NCBI GenBank assembly: GCA_050084515.1
Contig: CM114271.1
Coordinates: 6,138,001 to 6,202,000, forward strand
Length of the DNA stretch: 64,000 nt
From: Blasia pusilla
Lineage: Eukaryota
Direction: 5' to 3'
Position 1 is the stretch's first letter. Each line of letters opens with the position of its first letter. This document shows positions 1 to 47,743 of the stretch, piece after piece. The notes beneath the pieces were generated by a model that saw only the letters and a list, made by a program, of their open reading frames with translations, searched no databases and was not told the DNA's origin. The translations under genes were made by a program, and so were the position numbers.

Positions 1-329
1 GCACTACTGTACTCTACCATCCTCCCACATGCGGAGAATATGTGTTCCCTCCAATCAATACCTCTTAGCACGTTGAAGAACACGGTCTCGCTCCTTGGCA
101 CTCACTATGCCTGGCACCCTACTGGTCCGTAGGAACTCCAACACTTACGCATCATCATGAATATCACGCTGATCCGTACCACCATCTCCAACCTTAGGAT
201 CTAAAGGTGGCCATCTACCCTCGACTAGAGTAAGATATCATGTGGTCCTCCATACTAGAGTCCACCCTAACCAACATAAAAGGCGGATGCATGCCAACCT
301 GGCACCATCTCCTCATCAACCTCGCCATG

Positions 330-1590
330 CCATCTAGCCCCGCTTGTATCCTCTTGGCTAGTACATGGGTTCCTACTCAACCCATCAAGATCAAGGTTGG
401 CAACCTGTGTCTATGTATCACCCGGAAGTCATACTCTGTAAGATAAGAGCCCACCGTGCAAGCTTCCCCGTAAGCTTGTCCGACTCCATCAACCACTTGA
501 GCGTGTGGTGATCGAGAATAACAAGGGTAAAGCGTGTGTGCCAAACAAGTAACACCTAAAGTGTGCCCACACCACACACCGCCAAGCACTCTCCCTCATA
601 TGAACTATAGCGCGACTCTGCATTATTCGAACGACTTGCATAGGCCACCACAAACTCCATGTGCTCATCATCATGTTGTGTCAACACCGCTCCAAGTCCC
701 AACCTAATCCAATCAGTGTGTAACTGAAATGGGCGCCCTTTGATAGGTCTCCTCAAGATAGGCGCCGCCACCAACTGGGCCTTAAGCTCCCCAAAAGCTC
801 TCTCTTGATCATCTCCCCAGTGCCACTCTTGATCTGATTTCAGCAATTGGTTTAAAGGCTTTGCCATAGCACTAAATCCCTTCACATACCTCCGATAGTA
901 GTTCGCCAACCCCATGAATGCTCGAACTCTACTCACATATACCGGACGTGGAATAAGTGCAATAGCCTCCACCTTTGCTTGCTGAACTCCCAAACCACCT
1001 GGATAGATCACATGACCCAAGTACTCAACATCCTCATGGAAGAACTTACACTTTCCTTGGATGCAACGTAGACCATGAGCTTTCAACCGCTCAAACACCA
1101 TCTGCAAATGTATCTGATGCTCCTCCACCGTGTTACTGAACACCAAGATATCATCAATGTAACACCGAACAAAATCCAACCCTGCTAGGATCCTGTCCAT
1201 CACTCTTTGAAACTCGGCAGGTGCATTCTTCAACCCAAAGGGTAAGAATTTCCACTGGTACAAACAATCCTTGCCATGAGAGTTGACACCCCAAAATGCT
1301 GTCTTGGCCTTGTCACTCTCCCGAATTGGCAATTGATGGTATCCTGCTCGAAGATCCAAAGTACTGAAAATCTTTGCCTGTCCCACCACATCAAAGATCT
1401 CCTCAAGTGTAGGCATGGCATACCTATCGGCCTTGGTTTGCCGATTGATAGGACGGTAATCTCCACACATCCGCCTATCCGTGTAGTTGCCATGCATATC
1501 CTTTTTAGCATGCATGACAGTGGCTGATGCATACTCTCAGCGACAACTCCACTAATCCAGCCTCCAAAAGGTCCAACGCCCCTACTCGAA
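330..1590 (-). pseudogene. Reverse transcriptase and RNase H of copy 1 (frameshifted)
   Basis: ORF 556..1515 contains DLRAGYHQ, LPFGLKNAPAEFQR, CYIDDILVFS, then LHTDW...LGAVL...VAYASR...RYSSYEGECLAV (RNase H). Confidence 0.95.
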
Positions 1591-2069
1591 TCAGGTCCCT
1601 CTCCATATCACTATATCGGTAGGGACGACGGAAGATTGGCGTATCACTAGCCAAATCAATCCGTATACCGGGTCCAACCTAAAACCCAACTCCTTCATGC
1701 TAAAGGCAAAACAACTCCTATAAGCACGTAGGAACCTGTGTCAGCGTCGTTTCTCACCTCACCTAAGCTTGGGCCCAAGTAATGGCTCCCAAGTCTCTCC
1801 CTTTGGCATACTAGAGGGAGAGGACGATGCCATTGGTCGCTACACAACCCCCTCACAAGATGATACACCCTTAGCTACACCATCATCGAGCAAATAACTC
1901 CTCCACCAAAGATGAGCAACCAACTCCACATGCCCAACCATTACATCCCATTTACTCCAAGGATGCAAAATACTACTCTCCTTGCCCTGACCGATGCCTC
2001 TACCGTCCCGGTAGCCATCGAGCTCATTACAGGGGTGGAAGACCCTGACATAGTCCAAGTCGACGCCGC

Positions 2070-2990
2070 TCGGCCATACCAAGACTCAAAATCCAAGTCA
2101 AACAATTCAGGTCCATGGCCTGACCCAACACATGACGCCGTGAAGCCTCGTAAATAGAAGCAACCGCCACGCTGAAGAGTAAATCCCATCGCACGCTCTC
2201 TCTCATCGCCGTTAGGCTCCACCAATCGCCGCACATGAGAATCCCATACAAGCCCGGACCACCTTCCTGTAGGCATGTGACGCGGGAAAACTCACAAATG
2301 TGGATAGTGCCATCCTAGGTCTGGCCCACACGATTCACCAACGCCATGGGTGACCGATCAATAACCCTCACCACTTGAGAAAGTCGCCCAAGATTCAAGA
2401 TACTATCCACGGTAAGGCGAGGATCGCCAGACCGCATCATATGCTCGACGTAGAACCTCCCCTAGGCAACAAGTTTGTCCACCACAAGCGTGGACGATGT
2501 GCACGTGAGCCAACTTCTTCGGCACGCATCCAACAACACCGCTAGTCCAATCCAAGACCGCACCTCATGAACACTCGCCATCATCCGGGTCCGAGTGTCA
2601 CCCAACAATGGAACATTCTCCGAATGTAAGCTAGAGCACGTGCTCGATGAACTGAAGATGTCGTAACACCCGTAACATCTCCCAAAACAATCGAGACCTA
2701 GGGTCATGTAATCCCTCACCACGACCAAAGACGTGTATGACCCACGACATGGCCATCCCTGCAATCACCAAATCCACAGGACCAACCCTCTCAAGGTCCT
2801 GCACCCCAACAATGCAATGTGTGATGGTAAAGCACTGGTACCCACGAATAGCGATGGCGGCAACAACTCGGATATCTCCGCATCAATCGACCAATATGTC
2901 GGGATGAGACTCTCTAGGCGTCTCATCTCGCTCCCACATACACGTATCTCCAAGACAGAATACCGCCTGCAACATCGCCGCCAAACCTGG
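2070..2990 (-). pseudogene. DNA cytosine-5 methyltransferase domain of copy 1 (motif I deleted, frameshifted)
   Basis: Frame-hopping translation of the minus strand gives DLERVGPVDLVIAGWPC (motif IV), GEGLHDPRSRLFWEM, ENVPLLGDT (motif VI), EPNGDERERAMGF (motif IX) and RRHVLGQAMDLNCLTWIL (motif X). Confidence 0.85.
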
Positions 2991-3959
2991 TCTATAAGAC
3001 GTCTCGATCCAATAATCCATATGAAAAACCCATCGGTACAATATCGCTCCTCCAACTAGTACATCATACGACTCGGCTGATGTGACTACGCAGATACTCC
3101 CAACCGGGAGCTATCGTCGCATGATCCTGGTCTCAAATCAGACAGAAAACTTCCCGTGTCATGAATTGAGACCTATCATTGGCTCCTCCAAGTGATGTTT
3201 GAATCGGAATGGGCAAGGCTCAAGCTCGACCTCCGAATACCCAAACCAATACATGCCGCCTTTCCCAACATCAAAGGTGGGCACCGAGTCTAACAAGACT
3301 CTATCTGGTCTATACACTGTCATGTAGGACTCACCAATCGGAAGATCCCCTCCGGTTGTCCAACATACATACACCAGGTGTAAGCCTCTCACGATTAATG
3401 GTGGCCGGTGGTAATGCATCCATCTTCGCCGCCTTTGCGCTAAGTAGCACGGGTACTCAATGCTACTCTCGACATAGAGGGTCGCTCCACCGCAACATCC
3501 TCATCCACCTCAACACGTGTAGCAAGAATAACACCCCACGTTCACACAATGTGGTCGCTAGCTGAAATCTGAAGCTAAGTCAACTCCTAAAGCCATCGCT
3601 CGTGGCAAAACGATGGGGATCCCAACACCGAAGTTGCCATCCGCATCATCTTGCCTTTGGATGCCGCATCCGTGTCTACTACACGCGATGTAGATGCCTC
3701 GATCCCCCTTTGTAGGCTCAATAGGCTCGCGAGGAACCATGGATGGAGTCCTAAGCACCTCAGACAAGAAGAATGACTGGGAAGCCTAGCTCGCCTCCCG
3801 GCCTCACCCCTCTGTGGGTCCAACTCACAAAGTAGCACCACGTGGCTCTGACGCTCGAGTGGCTCCTCTCGTAACTGCAGCTGATGCCTCAACCTAAGCT
3901 GCACTCGCCATATAAGAGAGATCATCCCCTCCATAAGAGGTTGAAGCCCCTGCTCCCGA

Positions 3960-5230
3960 ACCTGATCTATCTTTGGATACCACCATAGTAGCCAACTCTC
4001 GCTCCAATGCTCAATCCTGGCGACCATAGCGACTCTGTCGTAGTGGTAGGGGTAGCCACCGTAGGCTCTCCAACCACTCGTCCACCTCTACCACACCTAG
4101 CACCTCTACCACCTCGGCCTCTCGAAGCTACTCCATCACGGCCACGGTCTGATCTCAACTCTGGATGAAGATCAAAGCAACACTCTCGAGGATGACCTAG
4201 TCTCCCGCAATGATCACACTGAGTTGGGGCCGACTGAGGCCCATCCTCCAAATTCCGTCTCCCATCCTCTTGGGGAAAAAAATTCCTAACATGATCACCT
4301 CCACATGTCCAACATGACTGTCCTTGCTGCGGGGCTGCAAATGAAGGCAATGGTCTCTGCACAAATGTCCCTCTAGGACTTGATCGAGGTCGCGTGTACC
4401 CCCACGACTCCCCACTACTACTACCACCACCACCACTACGAGGCTGTGAGGTGGGCGGTGAACACGAAGTAGTAGTTGTATCCCCTCTTGAATGCGGATG
4501 TCACCACTCTCTCCTTCACCATGTTAAGCTCAATCTTCTCAGATAGAGCAAACACATGGGTCAATGTGGGTGAATCATCACTCATAAGAGTAGCATCACG
4601 TACTCTACGGCGCAAATCTCTGTCCAAGATCCCATACCAAAATTGACCGCTGATCCTCAGTCACACCCAGGTAATTGAAATCAAGCGTCGATACGCGCGT
4701 GTATGCCTCACGAAGACTCTCACCAGTCTTTCGCTCAAAGTCGTGAAGATTCCTCAACTTCTCCGTCTTCACTCCTTGATAGTTCTTCTTCAACCTCTTG
4801 AAGAACTGCAATCGGGCTAAACGATGGTGGGGCACTAGTACCTCCACTAGTACCCCCACTAGTACCTCCACTCCGGCTCGCACTGCACCACTCGCGTCAT
4901 TTGGGTGGCATAGTAGGAGCACTACTACCAATACCACCATGGGTGATAGACACATAGCCTGGAGACCAATATTGTCTCCATGCCTCAATCTCAACAACAT
5001 GGTCCTTCCTTAACTCATGGTAATCATCCATGGGTGGTCCTTCCAAGTCTTTGAAACAACCCCTTCCAAGCCAAGAAGGGTGTAAACAACGTGCGTTCGC
5101 AACATCTACATATCACACCACGTATCAAACTCTGTATGAAGTCCTCCAACTCAATGGTACCCATTTGCACCGAGTATTGTCGTGGGCCCTTCATGGCCCC
5201 ATATCCACCGTCCATGTCCCTAATCAATGG
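3960..5230 (-). pseudogene. gag of copy 1 with two CCHC-type zinc knuckles and an RGG tract
   Basis: CWTCGGDHVRNF and CDHCGRLGHPRECC followed by RGRGGRGARCGRGG; upstream gag-like text EKLRNLHDFERKTGESLREAYTR. Confidence 0.85.
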
Positions 5231-6895
5231 AGCCGCAACACTCGATAACAACGTAGAAGACTCGGTGTTTGGAACACCTCGTCCTCCTCTTCATCAACCG
5301 TCGGAAGTGGAAAAGGTAGCGATACCTAAATCCACTCCGTGTGAAACCACCACCATCCCGCACCACGGTCCCCAACCAGACCACCCGACTGACTCGTGAT
5401 GACCAACGCCGATGCCGCACCACCACCAAATTACCCAAGTGACGTCGATGTCGCTCTACTATTGTAGCTCTACTAGCTATGGGTGTAGGCAACCTAACCT
5501 CTCATCACCACAAGAAGACTCCCACGGTCTACTGGTCATCATTCCAGCCTCACTATCAGTAGCACACAGGAGTAACACTACTATGGAAATCAGCGTCAAC
5601 CCTAACAATGGGCGCGCAAGCAAGAAGCACAATGGAGGGGATCCAAACACAGGAAATCCAACGACAACCCTCCAATCTCAAATGGAAATCAAGGTAACAC
5701 AATCCACCAAACGTGGTGCCCTCTGAATCCACAAAACCCACCACACAATTCTAACGCAATAGCTACTCCGCCGCGGGTCGATGACGTGCTAGTCGAACTC
5801 GCAGCACCTGAAAATATCACCTGCATGGAGAGGCTACACCGTACTATGCGCTAGAGGTACATCAACCAAAAACCTGAGATGCATAAAGTGCCTAACACCT
5901 CTCCGAACAGCACCAAATGAGCTACAACGACAGACCTTTGGCATAGTTAAGAACTCAGCAGTTAAGCGTCCTCCAGGCAGAATAGCCCAAAGATGGGTGA
6001 CCAGTTATGCAAAACTCAAATCCTAAATCCTGCAAAAATTTCCTCACACCCAAGCAAGCAAGCTTGCTTGCTTGCTCCTTGCTCCTTACTCCGCCTCTCA
6101 CGCCCACTCGCCCCGAGTTGCCTCGAAGCCTCAAAACGCCGAGACATGCCCCGTTCGCCACGCTTCACGATGCTTCGCTATGGAGAGAGGTCCAACCAGG
6201 GCGCCCCCAATGGGATAGGCATCTCCAAAAATGAACGAGTCACCAACCAACCAGCCCCTCCGATCCGCTGTCCACCATAGCCAGACCTTGAGCTAGTCCG
6301 CAAAATTTCGATATGAAATTACTTCACAAATACGTGACCAAAATCAAATCTGTTTCGATCAGAATTCAATTGACCACCATAGCTATCTCCCCACAAAAAC
6401 TCAGCTACAACCGAGCTCCGTACTCCGAGCTAAAGATCAGACAAACTTGCTGTCCATACACCTCTAGAACCGCAAATCCGACAGCGCTTCCGCCAAGTTT
6501 CATGCACGCAGAAATCCGCAACGCTCCACGCACTCGAGCAGATAGCTTCACATGAGATCACAATACAAGTAGCAATAGGAACCTCTCACCCGATCTGGAT
6601 GAACTTCACAGAGCTTCCGCACTCCAAGCTCTCCACATCGTAAAACCGTCGAACACGAACAGAATCTTCAATGCTTGATAACTTCCAACTCCCTTGACGA
6701 AATCCGGCGATCTCGGTAGCGTTGGAAAGCTCTCGCAAGAAGGCGCTTCTTTCCTAACCAACCAGGTACCTGATTCACACCTCCAACATAGGCAACAAGC
6801 CGCGAACATCCACGGCTGAGTACACAATCGGCCCCTAACTGGATCCCTCTTGATCTACAATCGAAGCTACCATCGATCTACTCCAGTTCTTTGAG

Positions 6896-7261
6896 TGAAA
6901 TCCGTGAAAGACCTACTGTCATAAAACACGTTTACAATCACATACAGTCGAGCCAAACCCACTCCACGATGGGAGAATCTAGGTCGAAGCTTGCGGGAAA
7001 CACCATAGCCAAGAGCTCTACTCACTACCAAAGCTAACTCCCAACGCAACAGGCTCAACTCAAAGAACTGATTGTTCTTTGAGGGCAAGCCACCTTATAT
7101 CCTCCAACCTAAGAGCGGGCTCTCTTTGGGAAAGTCACCCCAAGTGAGTAACCCCCAACCCTATGTATGGAACCGCATCTCTACCAAGCCACTACGGTCC
7201 TACATAAGGAATGGCCTCTACCAGCACTATACTCTACGACATAATCCGTATGGTCATGACA
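6896..7261 (-). repeat. Terminal repeat A (LTR-like, ~366 bp) of copy 1
   Basis: Homologous to 25317-25684 and 33860-34225; reads TGTCATGACC...GGATTTCA on the minus strand. Confidence 0.9.
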
Positions 7262-9403
7262 AACATGTAATATATAAAAGTAGATATTGAAATGTGAATT
7301 TATGTGCTTTTGTGAATAGCTAAGTCCTAGATGCACATGCTAGCGGGGACCCAATACGTGATCGAGCATGCGCATTGGTAAAAGGAGGATCTATCTTTGC
7401 TAGAACACTAAGACAAAATCTAGATTAGCTATGTGTGAGTAAATTTTGTTGTGGGAATTAGCCTCTAGTGATATTGATGGACTTGTCAATACTTTTGGAA
7501 TATCCTTATTACAAGCTAGGCGTATTTGAACCCTCCTCCATTTTCTACTAATTCCTTCATGATCATAGGAGAAGCTAAGGCCACATGCACTAGACCAAGA
7601 TCTGTCAATCATTCTAAGGAGCAAAATTTTCCAACGATTTTTTTGGTAAGATATCATAGTAATTCTTTATATGATTGTGTGGTTAGGCCACTCATCTTAA
7701 AATGAGTATGAATTATATAAGTTACTGGTCTAAAAATTCTTAAATCATAACTAGACTTAGCTCTGGATAGTACCATATAGGTTTGTAAAACATGAAAGCA
7801 AATTTTAATGCAACAAGATATCTACCTCCTATCGTACAATCTTATTATTTTTGTGTTTTCATTGCATAACTTATCATGATGGAAAATGTGAGTTTAGCAT
7901 ATTCCCTACTCCTTTTGGTATGCAATACATCATACATAGATCTCTTGACCTCTGTCGTGCGCATACACATTACTACACAACATACATTGTTGTCAGCGAA
8001 CACACACACAAACACTCGGGATCTCATGATAACTCATGGCATGTAACCATCGAGACGAGAAGTGTGAAAATATCTCCAATTCGCGAACATGAGGTCGAAA
8101 TCCAATACCTAAAGCGGAACGGAGGAATGTGCGGGCGCCTCCTCACAATTGCCACAACCAAAATCGTGTCTATTTGCGGGTAGTAATGGCAGGAACACAG
8201 TAGCTACGGCAAACCGCGTCGAGAAATCATGGACGCCCTTGGCTCAACCTTTGGTAGCAATAGAAACAACCGTTGGGGGGGGGGGAGGCATTGTGAGAAG
8301 TTGCGTAATCCCTAAGGAGGCGCAAATAGTTCAAGCAGGTGACCTAAGGTTGAGGTTGTGGTAGTCGGTCGCGGCGGCAATGGCAGTCAGTAGCTATAGT
8401 TGTGGCAGCACGGCTTTCACTTACTAACTCAGTTGAGAGCGAAGTGGCAACGAGGCGTCTACGACAGCAACAAACACGCGTGTGGCAGAATGCCAATAAT
8501 TGGGGACGCAGTCGATAAGGGAAATGTAGTAGTAGCGAGGCTAATGGTGTTGGAAGCAAGTCTAGCATAGCTAAGGTCGGCGGCTGCAAGTGGCCATAAT
8601 TGGATGCAAAGTGGGCGGCATCAAAGCGGACCCCAACGCCCCCTCTCCTTTTCTCTTATTTTATCTTAAATAAAAATTTCCGTCCGGAGACTAGGTCTGT
8701 TCTATTTTGCTAAACTTGACTGCCCCTCTTTCTAAAATTATCCATGATTTGGATTTTTGCCCCAATAATCCTTGAATTCTAGGGTCAACATCCCGAAAGA
8801 AAAAATTTTAACTTCAATAGAAAATTTCCTTTGTCCGATTCCCTTAGATAAAATGATTTTCTACCTCTTACACAAGGAGTTACCAAAGGCAATTGGAAAT
8901 TTCACTCACACGGTGGCACGGTGGCTATGGCAGCCAACAACATTGGTCACAACTTCGTGCTTAGATGTTCAAATCATGCACCGTTTTCTAGCAATGTGCA
9001 CAACTTCCTGATCTACGACGACGTTCAATTGGTTTCTCCACTAGACCTTAAAAAAAACTGACAAGGAATGTCATGCAACCCTTCAATTTTCATTCCTACA
9101 TAAATTTTGACAACACTTCCGCGATGATGACTCCGAACGACAATTGCAAACCTATGAAAACTCAAAACTAGAGAGCTCTATGGTGCCCTTGAGAACACCA
9201 TTATGGAGCAGCCCACCCCCATACTCAATTCATACCAAAAAATTGGCAACGCTTCCTTGCACCACTCTCATGTACAAAAATACTGCAAAGAAATGACACC
9301 AAACGGATGGCTCTTGCTCCCTAAGCAGTCTCGTGAGCCATGAAGCGGGGAACACGGTCCCAACTTGCAAACACAGCGAGAAACCAACGAGGTCCTCTAT
9401 TGT

Positions 9404-9691
<288 letters not shown>

Positions 9692-9693
<2 letters not shown>

Positions 9694-10100
9694 GAGAGGC
9701 TTGGATTGCTCACAAAAGGCAAGGAGGACCATAGCTCTTCCGCCTCATGCCAACAGGTTAAAAAAAGAGAGAATGAGCTCCCAAACTCTCTCTCTTGGAG
9801 GTATATTCCCTTCCCTCTCCCTTCCCTCTCTCCACAATAACCTATGCTCGCACGTCACCTCCTTGGATTTTAATATGCTGTAGCGGATAAAGGGCTACTT
9901 CCAAAAGTGGAAAGTCAACTATACTCAAAATGAGAACTTACGAGAAATAATAAGTTTCTCTATATGGCTCCAAATCAGCCGAAATGAAAAGGAACATGTT
10001 CTCTCAAGTTACCCGGGGCCTCAAGACCCTCAACAGGTCATCCTCGACCTCTTGAGGTTGTTCTCCACTACCCGAGAAGGCTCTCATATAGATCTTGTTG
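9692..10100 (+). repeat. Dispersed repeat of unknown class; homologs at ~12050-12200 (-) and ~45930-46350 (-)
   Basis: Shared blocks in all three copies: atgagaggctt..ttgctc(a)caaaaggcaaggaggaccatag, cgcctcatgccaa.aggtt, and aggtatat. The block atatggctccaaat.agcc is shared with the 46 kb copy only. Confidence 0.7.
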
Positions 10101-23705: not shown

Positions 23706-25058
23706 CAAGGTTGCATGTTGCGCGCCTACTCTCCTTGAACGTAAATATTTAGTGTTTTGGAAGCGTGCGTTCAGTAGGACACGCTCCCAATCCTGATCTA
23801 CACCCAAACACGCACTCTCCTTGGTCGGATTTGGGTCAATCAACGTTCTAACTTTCTGAGTTCTCGACTCCGCCTCTCATCAAGCTCAACTTTTCTAGTT
23901 TCGCGGTTTACAACATAGGCAAGTCTTTCAAGACTAGGGATAGACTTTCTGGTTGGTTCCGGAACCTTGAAGGGCGTTTGTATGCCTGGCAGTCCCAATT
24001 GTCCTATGTACATCCAATGAGTTCCTAATCGCGACTCACAAAAATGAGGCGCGCGTTGGAATCCAAGAGTGGCTTAAGAAATCCACTCCCTTGGATTAGG
24101 TTCGGGTTTCGAGTTCCCACGCCAAACTCTCCTTCCATCCCGTGCCCTTGAGACGCCGTTTGGCGCTCAAAATGGGGTTCGGGTTCCAAGAATCCTTGGA
24201 GACTCTTCCCCTTTACTAGTACTTCTGGGGATCTCTGCCATCCCCCTAACTTTGGGGAAACACAATCAAGCCTCTCATTTTGGCCCTCAACCCGACTCCT
24301 CATACAGTCATTTTCGGCAAATATCTCAAGCTTTTCTTGAGCGTTTTCTGAGATTTTTGGTGCGTTGTAATTTTCTTTGCATTAGCTTTCCAACGCCACC
24401 TTATTTGTTCCAAACTCATCTTAGGAATAAACGTTATGGTCCAAAACACAATCAAAATCCCCAAACGCCAGTCGTGTTCCAAATCTGGTTCTCACATCTT
24501 TGGCAACCAACCTTCCTAGACTCAACTCATCTCAAGTCTTGGTTCACGTTCGATCCAGGTTTCTTGGCCTCGACCATAAAGGCATGAAACGTACAAACTC
24601 TATTGCATGTTTCGTCTCTTGGAATTTTCCAAGAGATCTCTCCACAACGCAATCATCGTAGCGTGAACTCACTAAAGGTCTGATGTTTTGCTTGGCATCT
24701 ATTTGGTGTTCGTTTGGTTATGAGGGTCGTGACATTGCATATGGATAAAATCCGTATTTGTGGATATGTCCATGTCCGTGGACTTACGTCCGTTCTATAG
24801 AAGGATTTGCCCATGTGGGCCCCATCTCCCCATTCTTTCTCATTCCTCCATTTACCTTTGTGATCCACACTTTCTCATTTCTTCTTTCTTCTATTACTAC
24901 TCCCTCCCCCCATATTGCCCCGCACGTCCTTGCCTTGCCTTCCACCGTGAACTATAAGTATGGGTCCCACCTTTTGCAATCCATGCTAGTAGACATGTCC
25001 AAACTTGTCCTTCCATGTCCGTCCTAGGGAGGAGCTTGTCCGTTTTTGTGCAACCATG
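23706..25058 (+). mobile_element. hAT-type MITE interrupted at its left TIR by a solo LTR
   Basis: TIRs caaggttgca / tgcaaccatg and a perfect 8-bp TSD CTTATTAT (23698-23705, 25059-25066). The body (24740-25058) is homologous to 47423-47735. Confidence 0.88.
23716..24734 (+). mobile_element. Solo LTR (~1 kb), family X
   Basis: TGTTGCGCG...GTCGTGACA with a perfect 5-bp TSD TTGCA (23711-23715, 24735-24739). Confidence 0.9.
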
Positions 25059-25316
25059 CTTATTATGTGGATCTCTTTCTCCTCTTGCTACTTTTCTAGT
25101 CAAATCAGGGTGCAATTTGATTTTGATTGAAAAGGTTGTAGAATGCAACTTGTTCTCTTGGACTTGCTTCACCATGAGATTGACTAGAGATGTAAACCAA
25201 ATTTCATGTCATCCTCAATCTCTCCACTTTGTGATAGTATTTTCTATTTTTCCCTCCCCAGGAAACGAATATCTAAAAAAATTGGATTGCATAGTGGTTT
25301 CTTGCTTTGTGAAGAG

Positions 25317-25684
25317 TGTCATGACCATACGGATTATGTCGTAGAGTATAGTGTGCTAGTAGAGGCCATTCCTTATGAAGGACCGTAGTGGCTTTGTAGA
25401 GATGCGGTTCCATACATAGAGTTGGGGGTTACTCAGTTGGGGGTGAGTTTCCCAGTAGGGCCCGCTCTTAGGTTGGAGGATATAAAGTGGAGTGCACTCA
25501 AAGAACAATCAGTTCTTTGAGTTGAGCCTGTTGCGTTGGGAGTTAGCCTTGGTAGTGAGTAGAGCTCTTGGCTATGGTGTTTCCCGCAAGCTTCGACCTA
25601 GATTCTCCCATCGTGGAGTGGGTTTGGCTCGATTGTATGTGATTGTATACGTGTTTTATGACAGTAGGTCTTTCACGGATTTCA
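25317..25684 (+). repeat. Terminal repeat A1
   Basis: Near-identical to 33860-34225. Confidence 0.93.
25481..25521 (+). promoter_or_regulatory. Putative TATA box and transcription start inside repeat A
   Basis: TATAAA at 25481 and a pyrimidine-purine start (TC|A) at 25511, 30 nt downstream. The spacing is the same in copy 1. Confidence 0.55.
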
Positions 25685-26619
25685 CTCGTGGTAACTCGAG
25701 GTAGCTCGGGGCGAGTGGGCGTGAGAGGCGGAGTAAGGAGCAAGGAGCAAGCAAGCAAGCTTGCTTACTTGGGCGTGAGGCAATTTTTGCAGGATTTGGG
25801 ATTTGAGTTTTGCATAATTGGTCACCCATCTTTGGGCTATTCTGCCTGGAGGACGCTTAACTGCTGAGTTCTTAACTATGCCAGTGTACACACTATTGTA
25901 GCTCATTTGGTGCTATTCGGAGATGTGTTAGGCACTTTATGCATCTCAGGTTTTTGGTTGATGTACCTCTAGCGCATAGTACGGTGTAGCCTCTCCATGC
26001 AGGTGATCTTTTCAGGTGCTGCGAGTTCGACTAGTACGTCATCGACCCGCGGCGGAGTAGCTATTGCGTTAGAATTATGTGGTGGGTTTTGTGGATTCAA
26101 GGGGCACCACGTTTGGTGGATTGTGTTACCTTGATTTCCATTTGCGATTGGAGGGTTGTCGTTGGACTTCCTGTGTTTGGATCCCCTCCATCGTGCTTCT
26201 TGCTTGCGCGGCCATTGTTAGGGTTGACGCTGATTTCCAGAGTAGTGTTACTCCTGTGTGCTACCGGTAGTGAGGCTGGAGGGATGACGAGTAGACCGTG
26301 GGAGACTTCTTGTGGTGATGACCAGTTAGGTTGCCTACACCCATAGCTAGTAGAGCTAGAATAGTATAGCGACATCGACGTCACTTGGTTATTTGGTGGT
26401 GGTAATTTGGTGGTGGTGCGGCATCGGCGTTGGTCATCACGGAGCTGTCGGGTGGTCTGGTTGGGGACCGTGGTGCGGACAATGGTGGTTTCACACGGAG
26501 TGGATTTAGGTATCGGCTACTTTTTCCACTTCCGACCGTTGATGAAGAGGAGGACGAGGGTGTTCCAAACACCGAGTCTTCTACGTTGTTATCGAGTGTT
26601 GCAGCTCCATTGATTTGGG

Positions 26620-27900
26620 ACATGGACGGTGGATATGGGGCCATGAAGGGCCCACGACGATACTCGAGTCAAAGTGGGCACCATTGAGTTGGAGGACTTC
26701 ATGCGGGAGTTTGATACGTGGTGTGATATGCGGATGTTATGAACGCCACGTTGTTTACACCCTTCTTGGCTTGGAAGGGTTGTTTCAAAGACTTGGAAGG
26801 ACCACCCATGGATGATTACCATGAGTTTAGGAAAGACCATGTTCTTTGAGATTGAGGCGTGGAGACAATATTGGTCTCGGGCTATGTATCTATCACCCAT
26901 GGTGGTATTGGTAGTAGTGCTCCTACTATGCCCGGCCCGGCCCGAGCGTTGAGTGGTACAGTACGAGCCGAGTGGGGGTACGGTGGAGGTACTAGTGGGG
27001 GTACTAGTGGAGGTACTAGTGCCCCACCATCGTTCAGCCCAGTTGCAGAGTTCTTCAAGAGGTTGAAGAAGAACTATCAAGGAGTGAAGACGGAGAAGTT
27101 GGGGAATCTTCAAGACTTTGAGCGAAAAGGCGGTGAGAGTCTTCGTGAGGCATACACGCAGCGTATGCACGCTTGATTTCAGTTACCCAGGGTGTGAGTG
27201 AGGATCAGGCAGTCCAGTTTTGGTATGGGATCTTGGACAGAGATTTGCGCCGTAGGGTACGTGATGCTACTCTTATGAGTGATGATTCATCCACATTGAC
27301 CCATGTGTTTGCTCTATCTGAGAAGATTGAGCTTAACATGGTGAAGGAGAGAGTGGTGACATCCGCATTCAGTAGGGATACAACTACTACTTCTCGTGTT
27401 CAGCTGCCCACCTCACAGTCTTGTAGTAGTGGTGGTGGTAGTAGTAGTGGGAGTCGTGGGGGGTACACACGACCTCAGTCAAGTCCTAGAGGGATATTTG
27501 CACAGAGACCATTGCCTTCATTTGCTGCCCCGCAGCAAGGACTGTCATGTTGGACATGTGGAGGTGATCATGTTAGGAATTTTTGTCCCCAAGAGGATGG
27601 GAGACGGACTTTGGAGGATGGGCCTCAGTCGGCCCCAACTCAGTGTGATCATTGCGGGAGACTAGGTCATCCTTGAGAGCGTTGCTTTGATCTTCATCCA
27701 GAGTTGAGATCAGGCCGTGGCCGTGGTGGAGTAGCTCCGAGAGGCCGAGGTGGTAGAGGTGGTAGGGGTGGTAGAGGGGGACTAGTGGTTGGAGAGCCTA
27801 CGGTGGCTACCCCTACCACTACGACAGAGTCGACTATGGTCGCCGAGGATTGAGCAGATTGGAGCGAAGTTGGCTACTATGGTGGTATCCAACATAGATC
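26620..27900 (+). pseudogene. gag of copy 2 (two zinc knuckles, RGG tract; frameshifted)
   Basis: CWTCGGDHVRNFCP, CDHCGRLGHP*ERCF, then GRGRGGVAPRGRGGRGGRGGRGG. Confidence 0.85.
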
Positions 27901-28479
27901 AGTTCGGGAGCAGGGCTTCCACCTCTTATGGAGGGATGATCTCTCTTATATGGCGAGTGCAAAGACAAAAGTTAAGGCATCACAGGTGCGATTCTGAGAG
28001 GAGCCACTCGAGCGTCGAGCCACGTGGTGCTCTTGTGGAGTTGGACCCACAGAGGGGTGAGGCCGGGAGGCGTGCTAGGCTTCCCTGGGTCATTCTTGTT
28101 GTCTGAGGAGTCGAGGACTCCATCCATGGTTCCCGCAGCCTATTGAGCCGCGGTGGGGATCGAGGCATCTACATCGGCGTATAGTAGACACGGATGCAAA
28201 GCATCCAATGCGATTGTGCGGATGGCAACTTCGGTGTTGGGATCCCCATTATTTTCGCCACGGAGCGATGGCTTTAGGAGTTGACTTAGCTCTGTATTTG
28301 ATTTAGCGACCACGTTGTGTGAACGTGGGGTATTTATTGCTACACGTGTTGAGGTGGATGAGGGTGTTGCGGTGGAGCGACCCTCTATGTAAGGTGTAGC
28401 ATTGAGTACCAGTGCTACTTGGCGGCAAAGAACGGCGAAGATGGATGCATTACCGGCCCGGCCAGCCATTGATCGTGAG

Positions 28480-28900
28480 AGGCTTACACTGGTGTATGTA
28501 TGTTGGACAACCGGAGTGGGATCTTCCGATTGGTGAGCCCTACAGACAGTGTATAGACCGGATAGAGTCTTGTTAGACTCTAGTGCCCAACCTTTGATGT
28601 TGGGAAAGGCTGCATGTATTGGTTTGGGTATTCGGAGGTCAGAGCTTGAGCCTTGCCCATTCCAGATTCAAACATCACTTGGAGGAGCCAATGATAGGTC
28701 TCAATTCATGACACGGGAGAAGTTTTTCATGAGTTAAGACCAGATCATGCGATTGATAGCTCCCGGTTGGGAGTATCTGCGGTAGTCACATCGGCCGAGT
28801 CGTATGATGTACTAGTTGGAGGAGCAAAGATGTGTACCCGATGGGTTTTCAGATGGATTCTTGGGTGAGACAACGTCTTATAGACCTGGTTGGAAGTCGG
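28480..28900 (+). pseudogene. Retropepsin-type aspartic protease
   Basis: RVLLDSSAQPLMLG (D-S/T-G-like active site) and downstream YDVLVGG. Confidence 0.75.
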
Positions 28901-29289
28901 GGATGGACGTATGAGCCAAGTTCCTGTGAGATTTATTTTTGGGGCTCGACCAGGAGGGTCTTCCCCAACAATGTTAGCATCTGTGGCTGGTTTTAGTGGA
29001 GTAGTCACTTGGCCAGGAGACTTTTGGAGGGTAATGTTTTCGCTATGGATTCTCCTGCATGCATGAGGAGGTAGAGGAGGTCCCTATTTTTGCAGCAGTG
29101 GCATCCTCATCGTTGGATGTGCCACTTTGGAGTTTAGGCGGTGCACTACGGCAGAGGCGTCGCCTAGTGCAGAGAGGAGGCTTGGTGTGAGGTTATACCT
29201 CACGAGGAAGAGGAGGCCCCACGGCGGACTCCTACTTCTGGTCGATTAGGTTATCCCCTTTGGATACTACACCCATTGTATGGTAGTAT

Positions 29290-30240
29290 CCGCCGGAGGG
29301 CATTTGTCTCATTAGATCTCTTTGGTGGGATTAGCTGGTTTGGCTGCAGTGTTGCAGCCGATATTCTGTCTTGGAGATACGTGTATGTGGAGCGAGATGA
29401 GACGGCCCAGAGTCTCATCCCGACATATTGGTCGATTGATGCGGAGATATCTGAGTTGTTGTCGCCATCGGCTATTCGTGGGTACCAGCGTGTTTTTACC
29501 ATCACACATTGCATTGTTGGGCGCGGGACCTTGAGAGGTTGGTCTGTGGATTTGGTGATTCTTTGGATGGCCATGTCGGGTCATACACGTCTTTGGTCGT
29601 GGTGAGGGATTACATGACCCTAGGTCTCGATTGTTTTGGGAGATGTTACGGATGTTACGACATCTTTAGGTTCATCAGCACGTGCTCTAGCTTACATTCG
29701 AGAATGTTCCATTGTTGGGTGACACTCGGACCGGATGATGGCGAGTGTTCATGAGGTGCGGTCTTGGATTGGACCAGCGGTGTTGTTGGATGCTGGCGCG
29801 AGTTGGCTCGCGTGCACATCGCCCACGCTTGTGGTGGACAAACTTGTTGCCTAGGGAGGTTCTCGTCGAGCATATGATGCAAGGCGGGATCCTCGCTTAC
29901 ACGGTGGATAGTATCTTGATCTTTGGCGACTTTCTCAAGTGGTGAGGGTTATTGATCGGTCACCCATGGCGTGGTGAACCGTGTGGGCCAGACCTAGGAT
30001 GGGACTACCCACATTTGTGAGTTTTCCTCGTCACATGCCTACTGTGAGGAAGGTGGTCCGGGGCTTGTATGGGATTCTCATGTGCGGCAGTTGGTGGAGC
30101 CTAACGCTGATGAGAGAGCGCGTGCGATGGGATTTGCTCTTCGTGTGACGGTTGCTTCTATTTTCTGAGGCTTCACGACGTCATGTGTTGGGTCGGGCCA
30201 TGGACCTGAATTGTTTGACTTGGATTTTGAGTCTTGGTAT
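29290..30240 (+). pseudogene. DNA cytosine-5 methyltransferase domain (DNMT3-like) inside pol, frameshifted
   Basis: Motifs in canonical order: DLFGGIS (29315, I), YVYVERDE (II), VDLVI-GWPC (29546-29576, IV), GEGLHDPRSRLFWEM (V), ENVP (29700, VI), LLDAxRVGSRAHRPRLWWTNL (VII-VIII, ~29790-29846), EPNADERARAMGF (IX), RRHVLGRAMD (X). Confidence 0.9.
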
Positions 30241-30689
30241 GGCCGAGCTGCGTCGACTTCGGACTATGTCTGTGGGTCTTCCACCCCTTGTAATGAGCTC
30301 GATGGCTACCGGGACGGTAGAGGCATCGGCTGGGGGCGAGGAGAGTAGTATTTTGCATCCTTGGAGTAAATGGGATGTAATGGGTGGACATGTGGAGTTG
30401 GTTGCTCATCTTTGGTGGAGGAGTTATTTGCTCGGATGATGGTGTAGCTAAGGGTGTACCATCTTGTGAGGGGGTTGCGTAGTGACCAATGGCATAAATC
30501 CTCTCCCTCTAGTGTGCAAGTGGAGGAGACTTGGGAGCCATTACTTGGGCCCAAGCTTACGGGAGGTGAGAAATGACGCTTGACATAGTTCCTACGTGCT
30601 TATAGGAGTTGTTTTGCCTTTAGCATGAAGGAGTTGGGTTTTCTGGTTGGACCCGGTATACGGATTGATTTGGCTAGTGATACGCCAAT

Positions 30690-31960
30690 CTTCCGTCGTC
30701 CCTACCGATATAGTGATATGGAGAGGGACCTGATTGAGTAGGACGTTGGACCTTTTGGAGGCTGGATTAGTGGAGTTGTCGCATGGAGAGTATGCATCGC
30801 CCATCTGTCATGCTGCTAAAAGGATATGCATGGCAACTACACGGATAGGCGGATGTGTGGAGATTACCGCCCTATCAATCGGCAAACCAAGTCCGATATG
30901 TATGCCATGCCTACACGAGAGATCTTTGATGTGGTGGGGACAGGCAAAGATTTTCAGTTTTTGATCTTGGCGGGATACCATCAATTGCCGATTCGGGAGA
31001 GTGACAAGGCCAAGACAAAGCATTTTCGGTGTCAACTCTCATGGCAAGGATTGTTTGTACCGGTGGAAATTCTTACCCTTTGGGTTGAAGAATGCACTGC
31101 CGAGTTTCAAAGAGTGATGGGCGGGATCCTAGCAGGGTTGGATTTTGTTCGGTGTTACATTGATGATATCTTGGTGTTCAGTAACACGGTGGAGGAGCAT
31201 CAAATACATTTGCAGATGGTGTTTGAGCGGTTGAAAGCTCATGGTCTACGTTTGCATCCAGGAAAGTGTAAGTTCTTCCATGAGGATGTTGAGTACTTGG
31301 GTCATGTGATCTATCCAGGTGGTTTGGGAGTTCAGCAAGCAAAGGTGGAGGCTATTGCACTTATTCCACGTTCGGTATATGTGAGTAGAGTTCGAGCATT
31401 CATGGGATTGGCGAACTACTATCGGAGGTATGCGAAGGGATTTAGTGCTATGGCAAAGCCTTTGAACCAATTGCTGAAATCAGATCAAGAGTGGCACTGG
31501 GGAGATGATCAGGAGAGAGCTTTTGGGGAGCTTAAGGCCCAGTTGGTGGCGGTGCCTATCTTGAGGAGACCTATCGAGGCGCCCATTTCATTACACACTC
31601 GATTGGAGTAGGTTGGGACTTGGAGCGGTGTTGACACAACATGATGATGAGCACATGGAGTTTGTGGTGGCCTATGCAAGTCGTTCGAATAATGCAAATG
31701 AGTCGCGCTATAGTTCATATGAGGGAGAGTGCTTGGCAAGAGTGTGGGTGTGGCATACTTTAGGTGTTACTTGTTTGGCACCCAGTTTACCCTTGTTACT
31801 GATCACCAACCGCTCAAGTGGTTGATGGAGTCTGACAAGCTTATAGGGAAGCTTGCACGGTGGGCTCTTATCTTACATGAGTATGACTTCCAGGTGGTAC
31901 ATAGACCTGGAGTTGCCAACCTTGATGCTGATGGGTTGAGTAGGAACCCATGTACTAGCC
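30690..31960 (+). pseudogene. Reverse transcriptase and RNase H of copy 2
   Basis: DRRMCGDYRPIN, CYIDDILVFS, GKCKFF...VEYLGH, LGAVL...VAYASR, FTLVTDHQPLKWL, ARWAL...ANLDADGLSR. Confidence 0.95.
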
Positions 31961-32339
31961 AAGAGGATACAACTGGGGCTAGATGGCATGGCGAGGTTGA
32001 TGAGGAGATGGTGCCAGGTTGGCATGCATCCGCCTTTTTATGTTGGTTAGGGATGGACTCTAGTATGGAGGACCACATGATATCTTACTCTAGTCAGAGG
32101 GTAGATGGCCAGCCTTCAGATCCTAAGGTTGGAGATGGTGGTACGGATCAGCGTGATATTCATGATGATGCGTTGGTGTTGGAGTTCCTACGGACCAGTA
32201 GGGTGCCAGGCATAGTGAGTGCCAAGGAGCGAGACCGTGTTCTTCAACGTGCTAAGAGGTATCGATTGGAGGGAACACATATTCTCTGCGTGTGGGAGGA
32301 TGGTAGAGTACGAGTAGTGCCACATTTGGCTCGAGAGAG

Positions 32340-33200
32340 GCGCATTGTGCGACATGCCCATGAGGAGTTGGGACATTTTGGGGTAAAGCGACGTATAGCT
32401 TACTCCTTGGCGATATTGGTGGCGTGGCATGCATACTCAGGTGCAGCAATTGGTGTCACGTTGTATGGTTTGTGATCGGGTGAGGGCATCATTTAATGCC
32501 CCTACACCACAATTACACCCCTTGCCTATTATGGGGTTGGGTTACCGTTGGAGTGTGGACTTTGCGGGACCGTTACCTGGTTGGTATGCGACATCATCGA
32601 TATGTGTTGGTGATGGTGGAGCACTTCTCCAAGTGGATTGAGTTGGTGGCATTACCGGACAAGGCAAGTGAGGAACGGCGTATGCGTTTGGATAGAGTGC
32701 TTAGTCATTTTGGTGCATCGGTGAAGTCTTGACCGACCAGGGTCTGAGTTTGTGGTGAGTTTGGTCTTGTGTGACAAGGCGTTGATTGATCATCGGACCA
32801 CATCTCGAGATCATCCAGAGGCGGATGGTTTGGCTGAGCGTGTGGTTCAGGACGGTGAAGAGGGCATTGCGCAAGTATGGCCTCTGAAGGCATCTTGGAG
32901 ACGGGATGTTCGGTTGCCATGGTTAGCCATGGGGTATAGGTTGATCGCCAAGCATCCTTGGCTTCCTTCTCACCTTATTTTTTGTTATATGGCGAGATCC
33001 GGACTTTTGCAAAGCAATTGTCGGGAGTCTAGTGAGGTGGTGAACCTTGATGACCTAGAGATGTGGATGAGGGTGTGTTCTCAGCGGGCGGAGCTCTTTC
33101 GGAGAGTTATGCCAACAACCTTTGAGAATCTTGCCATTGCTCAACACAGGGATACGTTGCGGTATGCAACCATTCGAGGTGGAGGTTATTGACCATCGAT
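32340..33200 (+). pseudogene. DDE integrase (HHCC plus core)
   Basis: HAHEELGHFG...CMVC (HHCC), RWSVDFAGP, VEHFSKWIE, LTDQG, TTSRDHPEADGLAER. Confidence 0.9.
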
Positions 33201-33439
33201 TCGTAGGTTCCATGTGGGGGACTATGTCTATTTGCAGCAGATTGCACCGACAACGTTGGATGTGACGGCAGGCCGCACTATTTTACGAGTGCGCGAGGTG
33301 TTAGCTTCTGGAGTTCTCTTGTTGGAGGGTCGTGATGGAGTTGTTTGGAAGGACCATGTGCGTAATTGTGCGCCATGTCATCTTCCAAATGTGGATGGTA
33401 GTGTTGACCCAAGCTTAGCCATGATACGTGCTAGCTTGA

Positions 33440-33582
33440 GGTGCATGTTGTGTGGGTCTACTGGTAACGCAGCCCGTATGTTGGTGTGTGATGGGTGTTC
33501 TAGGGGTTGGCACATGATGTGTTTGACTCCACGTTTGGATGTTGTTCCTACTGGAAGGTGGGTTTGTCTTCGATGTACTTAG
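33440..33582 (+). other. PHD finger (C4HC3) at the integrase C-terminus
   Basis: CMLCGSTGNAARMLVCDGCSRGWHMMCLTPRLDVVPTGRWVCLRC* matches canonical PHD spacing, including the W-x-C-x-x-C end. Confidence 0.92.
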
Positions 33583-33748
33583 GAGAGGTAGATGACTTGA
33601 TCTTTGCATGATATGGATTACAGATGTGCGACTAACGATGGGGCAACCTATCACCCGACCTTTTCGATTCGGGCACCCAAGAAGGTGTATAGCATGTAGT
33701 AGATGTATAGGGCTACCGGGAGTTAGAGGACCTAACCGCCGCTTGATT

Positions 33749-33758
33749 AGGGGGCGAG
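33749..33758 (+). promoter_or_regulatory. Putative polypurine tract
   Basis: AGGGGGCGAG immediately before repeat B1 (TTGTGGTACAC). Confidence 0.6.
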
Positions 33759-33857
33759 TTGTGGTACACTTGCGTTTGTGGATACTCGTCTATGTTATGT
33801 ACGTATGTGAGTATGGTATGTCGATGTATGTTGTATGACGACGTGGATTCGCACGAC
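33758..33857 (+). repeat. Repeat B1 (~100 bp)
   Basis: Near-identical to 34226-34331. Confidence 0.92.
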
Positions 33858-33859
33858 GG

Positions 33860-34225
33860 TATCATGACCATACGGATTATGTCGTAGAGTATAGTGTGCT
33901 AGTAGAGGCCATTCCTTATGTAGGACCGTAGTGGCTTTGTAGAGATGCGGTTCCATACATAGGATTGGGGGTTACTCAGTTGGGGGTGAGTTTCCCAGTA
34001 GGGCCCGCTCTTAGGTTGGAGGATATAAGGTGGAGTGCACTCAAAGAAACGATCAGTTCTTTGAGTTGAGCCTGTTATGCGTTGGGAGTTAGCCTTGGTA
34101 GTGAGTAGAGCTCTTGGCTATGGTGTTTCCAAGCCGACCTAGATTCTCCCATCGTGGAGTGGGTTTGGCTCGATTGTATGTGATTGTATACGTGTTTTAT
34201 GACAGTAGGTCTTTCACGGATTTCA
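33860..34225 (+). repeat. Repeat A2
   Basis: Near-identical to 25317-25684. Confidence 0.93.
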
Positions 34226-34331
34226 GTTGTGGTACACTTGCGTTTGTGGATACTCTCGTCTATGTTATGTACATATGTGAGTATGGTATGTCAGCGATGT
34301 ATGTTGTATGACGATGTGGATTCGCACGACA
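34226..34331 (+). repeat. Repeat B2 (right terminus of the element)
   Basis: gttgtggtacacttgcgtttgtgga...gattcgcacgaca followed by agag. Confidence 0.92.
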
Positions 34332-34914
34332 AGAGCTTCTATATTTAATATGCATTTTTTCGAAAGTTAGAAAAAAATTAACCAAAGGAGCAATGTAAAA
34401 AATTGAACTATTACTATGAATTGAGTTTTCAAAATTCCCAATAAGTAATACTACGTGGATGACACGAGTTTTGTACTAGTTTTTATTTATGTCAATAAGA
34501 ACATGTAAGGGAAATTAAGAATAATTAAATTATTTATTTACTTTTATTAAAAACTTATCTTAGTAATACTATTATTTTTTAATGTAGAATTTAAAAGAAC
34601 CTCTTGTAAACAAGTTCCCTTGCTCTAATTTTAGAAGAATAAAACCATTGACTTGCCTTATCAAAAGATCGAAAATAAAAATAGGACCATAATCCATTTG
34701 GCCGCCGTTTAAAATCCTAATGAGCTGAAATAAGCACGAAAGACTCATGTATTCAGAGTATAGTATTCCGTCTAATGTTTACAACTTCAGTTATTTCCGG
34801 GCCCATCGGAGGCTAGGAGCGTCCACTCCCGACACACTAGTATAAAACCATAAACTAAGCGCAGAAATAAGTCTTCGCGGAGTACATATACTCTGAGCTG
34901 TTGAGGGGTTTCGT

Positions 34915-43665: not shown

Positions 43666-45090
43666 TAGGGTGTGTCACAAGGGGTACCATTCGTGACACA
43701 CCCTCGTTATCCATCTCAAGCTTGAGTGTGCCACTAAGGGTGAACTAGCCATTTAGTGGAACTCCTACTCCTTCTTGATAGTGTGCTACTGGCACACTCC
43801 TTGTCGTGCGCCTACTCTCCTTGAACGTTAATCTTTGTTGTTGCGGAAGCATGGGTTCAATAGGTCACGCTCTCAACGCTGATCTGCATCCAAACACGCA
43901 CTCTGGTTAGTCGGGTCTGGATCAATCAGCGGGCTAACTTTCCGAGTTCTTGTCTCGGTCTCTCATCAAGCTCAACCTTCCTTGTTTTGCAGTTTATAAC
44001 ACAGGCAAGTCTCGAAAGACTTGGGACAGACTTTCCGGTCGGTTCAGGAACCTCAAACAACATTTCGTGTCTGGCGGTTCCAACTGTCCGATGGACATTC
44101 AATGTGTCCCTAACCGAGACTCACACAAAATGAATCACGGGTCGCAATCCAAGTCTGGCGTACAAAGTCCACTCCCTTGGATCAAGTTTGGGTTTCGAGT
44201 TCCAACGCCAAACTCCCGTTCCATCCCGTGCCCTTGAGACGCCGTTTGGTGCTCAAAGTGGGGATGGGTGTTCCAAGACTTCTTGGAGAGACTCCTCCCT
44301 TACTAGTACTTCTGGGGATCTCAGGGGTTCCCTTCTTTTAGGGAAAGACACCCGAGCCTCTCCAATTGGCCCTCAATCCGATTGCTCTCACAATTGTTTT
44401 CGGCCAATATCTCAGTCTGTATTTATGCATTTTCTGAGATATTTAGTGCATTGGAAGCGTCTCAAGATAAGATTTCCAACGCACCCTTATTTGTCCTAAA
44501 TGCATCTTGAGGCTAAACGTTATGGTCCAAAACATAGTCAAATTCCCCAAACGCTAGTCATGTTCCAAAACTGGTTCTCACCTCTTTGGCAACCAACCTT
44601 CCAAGACTGAACTCATCTCAAGTCTTGGCTCGCGTTTGGTCTAGGTTTCCTAATCGCGACCACCAAGGCATGAAACACACAACTATGTTCCGTGTTTCGT
44701 CTCTTGGACTTTTCCAAGAGACCTTTCCAAAAGCCTCTCCAAAGCGCGATCATCGCAACGCAAGTCCACTTGAGTTTTGATGTTCCATTTGGCGCCTTTT
44801 TGGTATTTGTTTGGTTGTGAGGGTCGCGAAAATCCTAGAGTGTCAAGAAGAAGTAGGAGTTCCATAGCAAAATCCCATGCTTTCTTTAGATCAAGGAGGC
44901 TAGGTTCAACAAAACTAGTAGCTTGGGTCTTTCACACCCATTTCCTTATTTCAAACATGCACATGATTTCCTTACAAAGCTTGTAGCACCTTGATAGGTA
45001 CCTCTGCTGTTATCCTATCGGGCCATACCCCATTTTGATGACTATACGCCTACTTGGAGCACCAATAGGCTCCCCATGTGACACACCCTA
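43666..45090. mobile_element. TIR element (MITE-like, TAGGG ends) carrying a nested solo LTR
   Basis: TIRs tagggtgtgtcacaagggg / ccccatgtgacacacccta (18 of 19 match); no TSD recognised. Confidence 0.6.
43802..44831 (+). mobile_element. Solo LTR (~1 kb), family X
   Basis: TGTCGTGCGCC...GGTCGCGAAA, near-TSD ctcct/atcct, and full-length homology to 23716-24734. Confidence 0.82.
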
Positions 45091-47735: not shown

Positions 47736-47743
47736 GCACTGAG

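Follow-up and report, generated by a model that had tools for sequence, protein, structure and literature searches.

The window examined here, a stretch of 64,000 nucleotides (nt) of Blasia pusilla DNA (GenBank assembly GCA_050084515.1, contig CM114271.1, positions 6,138,001 to 6,202,000 of the forward strand), hosts two copies of a Ty3/Gypsy-type retrotransposon family with protease, reverse transcriptase (RT), RNase H, DDE integrase, PHD finger and a DNA methyltransferase (DNMT)-like stretch. Copy 1 lies on the minus strand, copy 2 on the plus strand. The family most likely begins minus-strand DNA synthesis by self-priming, as the fission yeast element Tf1 does: the 5' end of the element RNA would anneal to a complementary site placed directly behind the terminal repeat, here called A, taking the role usually played by a transfer RNA (tRNA). 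As far as DNA can tell, this view is sustained by the complementarity and position of the two sequences, by their conservation across two clades of relatives in which the sequences themselves are different, and by a junction between two further repeats, A2 and B2, that appears to mark the end of the complementary DNA (cDNA). The parts of copy 1 involved are listed below, in window coordinates; clades I and II are the two groups of relatives described further on.

6896-7261, minus strand: repeat A of copy 1 (A1), from TGTCATGACC at 7261 to GGATTTCA ending at 6896; predicted U3, 7261-7070; predicted R-U5, 7069-6896
7094-7099, minus strand: TATA box TATAAG, 30 nt upstream of the 11-mer (30-33 nt in 9 further elements)
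7074-7083, minus strand: U3 arm CTCAAAGAAC preceding the 11-mer, conserved in clade I relatives and absent from clade II
7059-7069, minus strand: AGTTCTTTGAG, predicted first 11 nt of the transcript and proposed self-primer
6885-6895, minus strand: CTCAAAGAACT, proposed primer binding site adjoining A

The putative priming site CTCAAAGAACT (6895-6885) immediately follows repeat A of copy 1, whose last bases, ...CACGGATTTCA, end at 6896; on the opposite side of the repeat, the depth of the DNA runs drops to zero beyond 7267, near the element end. The perfect 11/11 complement of the site, AGTTCTTTGAG, resides inside A, at 7069-7059 on the minus strand, and at 25511-25521 and 34055-34065 on the plus strand. 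The TATA box (7099-7094) begins 30 nt upstream of the A residue at 7069, the spacing is equal in copy 2, and a distance of 30 nt between TATA box and 11-mer is common to the three copies of repeat A. A preliminary description of this DNA had reported the site, its perfect complement within A and the distance of the latter from the TATA box, and all three observations hold. Pairing extends over 11 nt, or 12 with inclusion of the last base of A; the self-primer of Tf1 is 11 nt long. The 11-mer or its complement occurs 4 times in the window against 0.05 expected, a number reached in none of 100 shuffles. Three of these matches are copies of repeat A, which leaves the site behind A as the one independent event.

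The first 10 bases of the proposed priming site are a direct copy of the arm CTCAAAGAAC, located five bases upstream of the 11-mer, with which the arm may form a local 10-bp hairpin with loop AATCA; the preliminary description makes no mention of this arm. The direct repeat (7083-7074 / 6895-6886) is what lends some credit to the view that the match is due to chance, or is the relic of a duplication, the 10 bases behind A being a stray, functionless copy of the arm. Such a view is hardly credible, and in our opinion largely refuted: when the site 11-mer was shuffled, a perfect complement anywhere in the 366-nt repeat A was encountered in 2 of 2000 trials, related elements keep the site at the same place in nearly all 5' ends (10 of 11), and clade II, despite having no U3 arm, retains a complement of 13-15 nt. 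The local hairpin at the U3/R border, made of CTCAAAGAAC, a 5-base loop and GTTCTTTGAG, is seen at 7059-7083 (minus strand), 25497-25521 and 34040-34065 (both plus strand).

According to the self-priming scheme, the RNA would start with the A of AGTTCTTTGAG (7069), some 30 nt downstream of the TATA box, and its first 11 nt would fold back onto CTCAAAGAACT (6895-6885), flush with the end of A and about 175 nt downstream. RNase H would cut behind nucleotide 11, and the freed 3' end would prime the synthesis of U5-R. Later, as the plus strand is extended from the polypurine tract, the primer would be recopied; in this way the site would be renewed, and the two sequences would stay complementary. 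We infer all of these steps, transcription start, RNase H cut and priming, by analogy with Tf1 (PMC4600332).

A scan of metagenome contigs for relatives yielded 80 loci, among which 11 element 5' ends could be defined. Five belong to clade I (RT 76-87% identical to that of the window, R-U5 alignable at 74-79%), six to clade II (RT 43-48% identical). At 10 of the 11 5' ends the best complement of the bases behind the repeat, taken as 11 in clade I and 13 in clade II, is the homologous site, found 30-33 nt after a TATA-like box or, in the clade I element L002, in which the TATA box is mutated, at the homologous position of the long terminal repeat (LTR). The partners form 9-12 Watson-Crick pairs in these 10 5' ends, and the duplexes differ in sequence, AGTTCTTTGAG/CTCAAAGAACT in clade I as opposed to AGTTTTTCTAGAA/TTCTAGAAAAACT in clade II. 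Changes are seen also within clade I: the 3' repeat of L002 carries AGTTCTTCGAA, which matches the site TTCGAAGAACT at 11/11 positions, and two positions are changed on both sides relative to the window family. In the alignment of the 10 leaders 88.7% of 97 cells pair, versus 43-61% if the partner is slid by 1-3 columns, and in 3 of the pairs both partners have changed. Covariation scored 0.251 versus 0.170 in shuffled alignments, a value reached by 1 of 500 shuffles if that of the real alignment is taken as the threshold. The minimum-energy fold closes with the helix formed by RNA start and site in 8 of the 10 leaders. Covariation in related families was the check proposed in the preliminary description, and pairing is indeed kept at these 10 5' ends while the sequences change. 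Repeats and junctions were looked for also in L005, L023 and L041 (56-58% RT identity) and in L008, and none was clear.

The 9 nt next to the repeat end contain no TGG at any of the 11 5' ends, in agreement with the earlier remark that no TGG-type site abuts the repeat. TGG-type sites are located right at the LTR end in three more distant elements of the same contig set (L072, L073 and L079); TGGTATCAGAGC is presumably the site for the initiator tRNA-Met. In a quick RT tree, in which the window is compared with metagenome loci only, the window and both clades fall into one clade of 34 rows (SH-aLRT 99), and the three elements with TGG-type sites into the other half; the tree leaves aside 10 of the 80 loci, among which L004, L012 and L026, as they provided no high-scoring segment pair of 250 amino acids. 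It is quite improbable that a host RNA (tRNA, tRNA half or other small RNA) acts as primer, and that the match to the predicted 5' end of the element is secondary. Half-tRNA sites devoid of TGG are known in plant Ty1/copia lineages, according to the text of PMC6317226. Yet, the two clades feature different sites, each matching its own repeat 30-33 nt after the TATA box, and two host RNAs would have to fit by coincidence.

The 3' part of the element is preserved in copy 2, where the following features were recognized.

25313-25316 and 34332-34335, plus strand: target-site duplication AGAG, left and right of copy 2
25317-25684, plus strand: repeat A1 of copy 2; 11-mer at 25511-25521
33750-33758, plus strand: polypurine tract GGGGGCGAG, directly upstream of B1
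33759-33859, plus strand: repeat B1, ending ...CGCACGAC GG at the A2 junction
33860-34225, plus strand: repeat A2 of copy 2; 11-mer at 34055-34065
34226-34331, plus strand: repeat B2, following A2 without a gap (junction J2: ATTTCA G TTGTGG) and ending ...CGCACGACA, the element 3' terminus

The genomic layout is A1...polypurine tract-B1-A2-B2, the tract being rich in G; it is found both in copy 2 and in 12 loci of both clades retaining that part of the element. The left end thus carries A only and the right end B-A-B, an arrangement that departs from the two identical LTRs by which LTR elements are defined. Loci with the permuted layout include copy 2 (25317-34331), L002, L003, L006, L009, L010, L016, L019, L025, L042, L043 and L060. 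All element 5' ends, six from clade I and five from clade II, begin at TGTCATG next to unrelated flanks, and in none of them is A followed by B; six of them share the start TGTCATGACCATA, again with unrelated flanks. At the opposite terminus B2 ends with ...CACGACA beside an unrelated flank, and elements are accordingly bounded by TGTCATG...CACGACA (TG...CA). Target duplications of 4 bp surround the A1...B2 unit, and are perfect in three of the four complete elements (AGAG in copy 2, TTTA in L019, ATAA in L043), while 3 of 4 bases match in the fourth (CATT/CATC in L025). A search for the empty site of copy 2 gave nothing usable, the flanks having a diverged paralogue at about 47.4-47.7 kb. Two other definitions of the LTR, either as A+B, or as A with B as flanking DNA, were discarded on account of the TGTCATG 5' ends with unrelated flanks and no B behind A.

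Two internal junctions are informative. The B1|A2 junction (J1) reads ...CACGACA GC TGTCATG in relatives, a palindrome of both element termini with 2 bases between them, and looks similar to an LTR-LTR circle junction. The palindrome (GACAGCTGTC) is found in both clades, at L004:13092-13115, L006:3317-3340 and L019:12977-13000 among others, and is decayed in the window (33850-33869). At the A2|B2 junction the last base of A is joined to the first base after the polypurine tract in all four clade I 3' ends, as TTTCA-G-TTGTGG in copy 2, L002 and L006, and as TTTCA-A-TTGTGG in L003. The clade II joins are spread over 0-3 nt of the sequence that pairs with the predicted RNA start, and their position differs between copies (L018:11290, L043:13270, L019:13298, L016:4899); such spread would fit joins that arise afresh in every round of replication and are not inherited.

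The A2|B2 junction looks like the joined cDNA ends of a product organized as (B+A)-site-internal part-polypurine tract-(B+A). If so, minus-strand DNA starts at the first base of the proposed site, and a conserved motif found 10-22 nt further on, TGGAGTAG, is ruled out as the primer site by the position of the junction. The genomic form, A1-site-internal part-polypurine tract-B1-A2-B2, is a circular permutation of the product predicted from the polypurine tract and the primer site. The polypurine tract precedes B, hence the reverse-transcribed LTR should be B+A. Repeat A directly precedes the site, as seen in the preliminary description, but in terms of reverse transcription is not the whole LTR. 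The self-priming proposal made in that description gains from both lines of evidence, the complementarity kept in related families and the A2|B2 junction as a mark of the cDNA end. That the genomic form is made directly from a primer at the B|A junction was also considered and rejected, no purine tract or primer site being present there.

The helix might be real and have another role, such as packaging, dimerisation, translation control or template switching of the DIRS type, priming taking place elsewhere or by another primer. This is unlikely, though less so than the alternatives discussed above. The A1...B1-A2-B2 layout is shared with split-direct-repeat elements, whose replication departs from the textbook LTR scheme, the helix closes a structured leader of 140-190 nt in 8 of 10 folds, and in clade I a second, local hairpin partner is present in U3. 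On the other hand, the site starts exactly at the cDNA end marked by A2|B2, as predicted for a primer site and not for a mere structural helix, no other candidate primer site adjoins the repeat, and the polypurine tract is in its textbook place before B1.

A number of points weigh against self-priming, or lessen the force of the comparison between clades. The eleventh 5' end, L012, is an exception, the homologous stretch of the repeat being deleted, and the helix is absent from 2 of the 10 leader folds. Pairing may be imperfect: the own 5' repeat of L002 matches the site at 9/11 positions, L017 at 10 of 13 plus 2 G:U pairs, L025 and L043 at 11/13. The changes on both sides which set L002 apart from the window are of the CpG to TpG/CpA type, and can arise in parallel. 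As two deep lineages have been compared, independent events are few, and the helix tested was derived from the same sequences, which favours the tested register over the slid controls. The clade I site, being a direct copy of the U3 arm (7083-7074), could stem from a duplication, and the clade II core, TTCTAGAA, is palindromic, which inflates its complementarity. The start of transcription is predicted from the TATA spacing (30-33 nt) alone; four sequencing runs, two of them regarded as possible RNA, showed neither starts nor ends of molecules. ARAGORN identified one tRNA gene in the window plus the 80 loci (840,615 bases), too few for a comparison of host tRNAs with the site. Finally, the genomic layout is non-standard for LTR elements, and the textbook scheme of reverse transcription may not fully apply.

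To accommodate both self-priming and the permuted layout, a hybrid route may be put forward, tentatively and with less confidence than self-priming itself. Self-primed linear DNA with a B+A LTR would be produced, and would integrate as a circular permutation opened at the palindromic B|A junction (GACAGCTGTC) inside the LTR, leaving the joined A|B cDNA ends near the right end of the inserted element. Such a route implies that a circular or tandem-LTR intermediate is cut by the integrase at every cycle. The other possible permutation has been found at none of the 11 5' ends, a fact which a circular or tandem-LTR intermediate does not explain.

Copy 2 lacks most of the site and the leader that follows it in copy 1.

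6127-6884, minus strand: untranslated leader of copy 1, shared by the family at large and lost from copy 2 by deletion
25685-25695, plus strand: CTC remnant of the priming site and 8 further bases (GTGGTAAC) at the deletion joint of copy 2

Behind A, copy 2 has only CTC (25685-25687) and 8 other bases, then the match to copy 1 resumes, position 25696 corresponding to 6126. Two DNA runs of the host cover the 766 bases unique to copy 1 (6892-6127) at high depth. The leader is therefore a family feature, and its absence from copy 2 is due to a deletion, as stated in the preliminary description. The 8 filler bases GTGGTAAC resemble the start of repeat B (GTGGTACAC), and may derive from a template switch during reverse transcription.

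The coding regions of both copies are decayed, as are those of all copies found.

1-6126, minus strand: internal part of copy 1, with decayed open reading frames; DNMT-like stretch 2987-1912, RT-RNase H 1536-556; runs off the window
29177-33579, plus strand: decayed pol of copy 2, with DNMT-like/protease stretch, RT, RNase H, DDE integrase and PHD finger

RT, RNase H and PHD finger were detected by Pfam in the decayed frames of the window copies, the PHD finger at 1.4e-10. A related protein, P0005, which includes RT, RNase H, H2C2, rve integrase and PHD finger, aligns with residues 63-1081 to positions 30526-33579 of copy 2. The order protease-RT-RNase H-DDE integrase is that of Ty3/Gypsy pol regions, and relatives carry PF00078, PF17917/17919, PF17921 and PF00665, the DDE integrase being represented by the rve and H2C2 families. 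The integrase terminates with a PHD finger and not with a chromodomain, relatives having PF00628 and not PF00385. The label "Tf1-like" used in the preliminary description is appropriate to the mechanism only. No recombinase family was found in Pfam scans of the window and of relatives. The identification of the family with tyrosine-recombinase (DIRS) elements, which the repeat layout suggests, was rejected on the basis of the DDE integrase and the target duplications.

The nearest named relatives of the RT are liverwort proteins (80-82% identity), and further relatives occur in Klebsormidium, Closterium and Haematococcus, the K. nitens proteins being 46-54% identical. Many of the protein relatives feature integrase and PHD finger, and some a DNMT domain. 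In the relative L004 a DNA_methylase Pfam match (7.1e-09) covers 8345-9694, immediately upstream of RT. The DNMT-like stretch of the window is homologous to that of L004 (40% identity), and is found, decayed, in both copies; this C-5 cytosine methylase-like stretch lies in pol upstream of RT, at 29177-30409 on the plus strand and 2987-1912 on the minus strand. A strong skew of G over C is observed on the coding strand of both copies (GC skew about 0.2-0.29; window 1-10000 and 26000-34000).

Self-priming as such is not new. In Tf1 of Schizosaccharomyces pombe the 5' LTR is immediately followed by a primer binding site to which the 5' end of the element mRNA is complementary, no tRNA primer being used, and self-priming has been proposed for Tj1 of S. 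japonicus and other fungal and vertebrate elements, as set out in the text of PMC4600332. The elements described here likewise have a site behind the repeat complementary to their own predicted RNA start, over 11 (or 12) nt in the window element and 13-15 in clade II. They differ from Tf1 in that the mRNA start is a predicted one, in the PHD finger replacing the chromodomain, in the A1...B1-A2-B2 layout replacing LTR...LTR, and in the host, a liverwort-type land plant. In plants, self-priming has been predicted for 12% of the LTR elements surveyed by Neumann et al. (2019), among which the Tcn1 chromoviruses of mosses and clubmosses, and the TAR lineage of Ty1/copia elements (PMC6317226). Like the elements of those lineages, as reported in the text of that survey, the window family consists of plant LTR retrotransposons for which self-priming is predicted from sequence; an apparent lack of tRNA-type sites, judged here from the absence of TGG next to the repeat, would be a further resemblance. 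The main text of the survey contains no occurrence of the words liverworts, Marchantia or PHD.

The layout has parallels of a different sort. Split-direct-repeat elements of the order DIRS (PAT, TOC, Kangaroo, Ngaro) are organized as A1...B1-A2-B2, with the internal repeats behind the last gene, and encode a tyrosine recombinase (PMC4157794, in the portion dealing with these elements). The window family has the same layout, but differs from them in the DDE integrase, the TG...CA ends and the 4-bp duplications. KnitGypsy-Dnmt3, described in Klebsormidium nitens by de Mendoza et al. (2018), has a Gypsy-type pol including a DNMT domain, and the legend to Fig. 4c of that paper reports a repeat structure of the DIRS type and domains of the Gypsy type (PMC5890265). 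Set against the published description, as given in those parts of the paper, Gypsy domains, a DNMT in pol and a DIRS-like layout are found together also in the window family and L004; the host of the window family belongs to another group, and the DNMT stretch of the family has decayed. Neither primer binding nor PHD occurs in the main text of PMC5890265. A literature search retrieved no account of self-priming in this lineage, nor any paper dealing with liverworts in connection with self-priming or PHD Gypsy elements; PMC5890265 was the only paper found on split direct repeats in elements that have an integrase. Self-priming is already known in Tf1 and predicted in plants. The more unusual feature is the permuted layout, inserted by an integrase, of the whole clade, for which the search brought up no more than a brief mention in print.

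Self-priming is nonetheless rare, being studied experimentally in fission yeast elements only and predicted in few plant lineages, and its conservation across two deep clades of PHD-finger, DNMT-linked Gypsy elements would broaden its range. Covariation of the primer helix can be followed between the clades in a clean natural series. The internal junctions, which record where cDNA starts and ends, make the family a good system to analyze how a DDE integrase inserts a permuted genome. The hybrid route, if true, would link LTR and DIRS-type elements functionally, and would be an example from nature of integration that starts from an LTR-LTR circle junction. On the practical side, LTR finders expecting two equal LTRs and a tRNA site will miss or mis-call the family.

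Other repeated sequences populate the window. Copy 2 is nested in a member of another repeat family, which has a diverged paralogue 20 kb downstream (23716-25058 versus 43802-47735). A further DNMT-like match, obtained by tblastn at 47049-48558, suggests the presence of a third, more distant retroelement. A 109-base unit is tandemly duplicated, at 91% identity, at 54184-54401.

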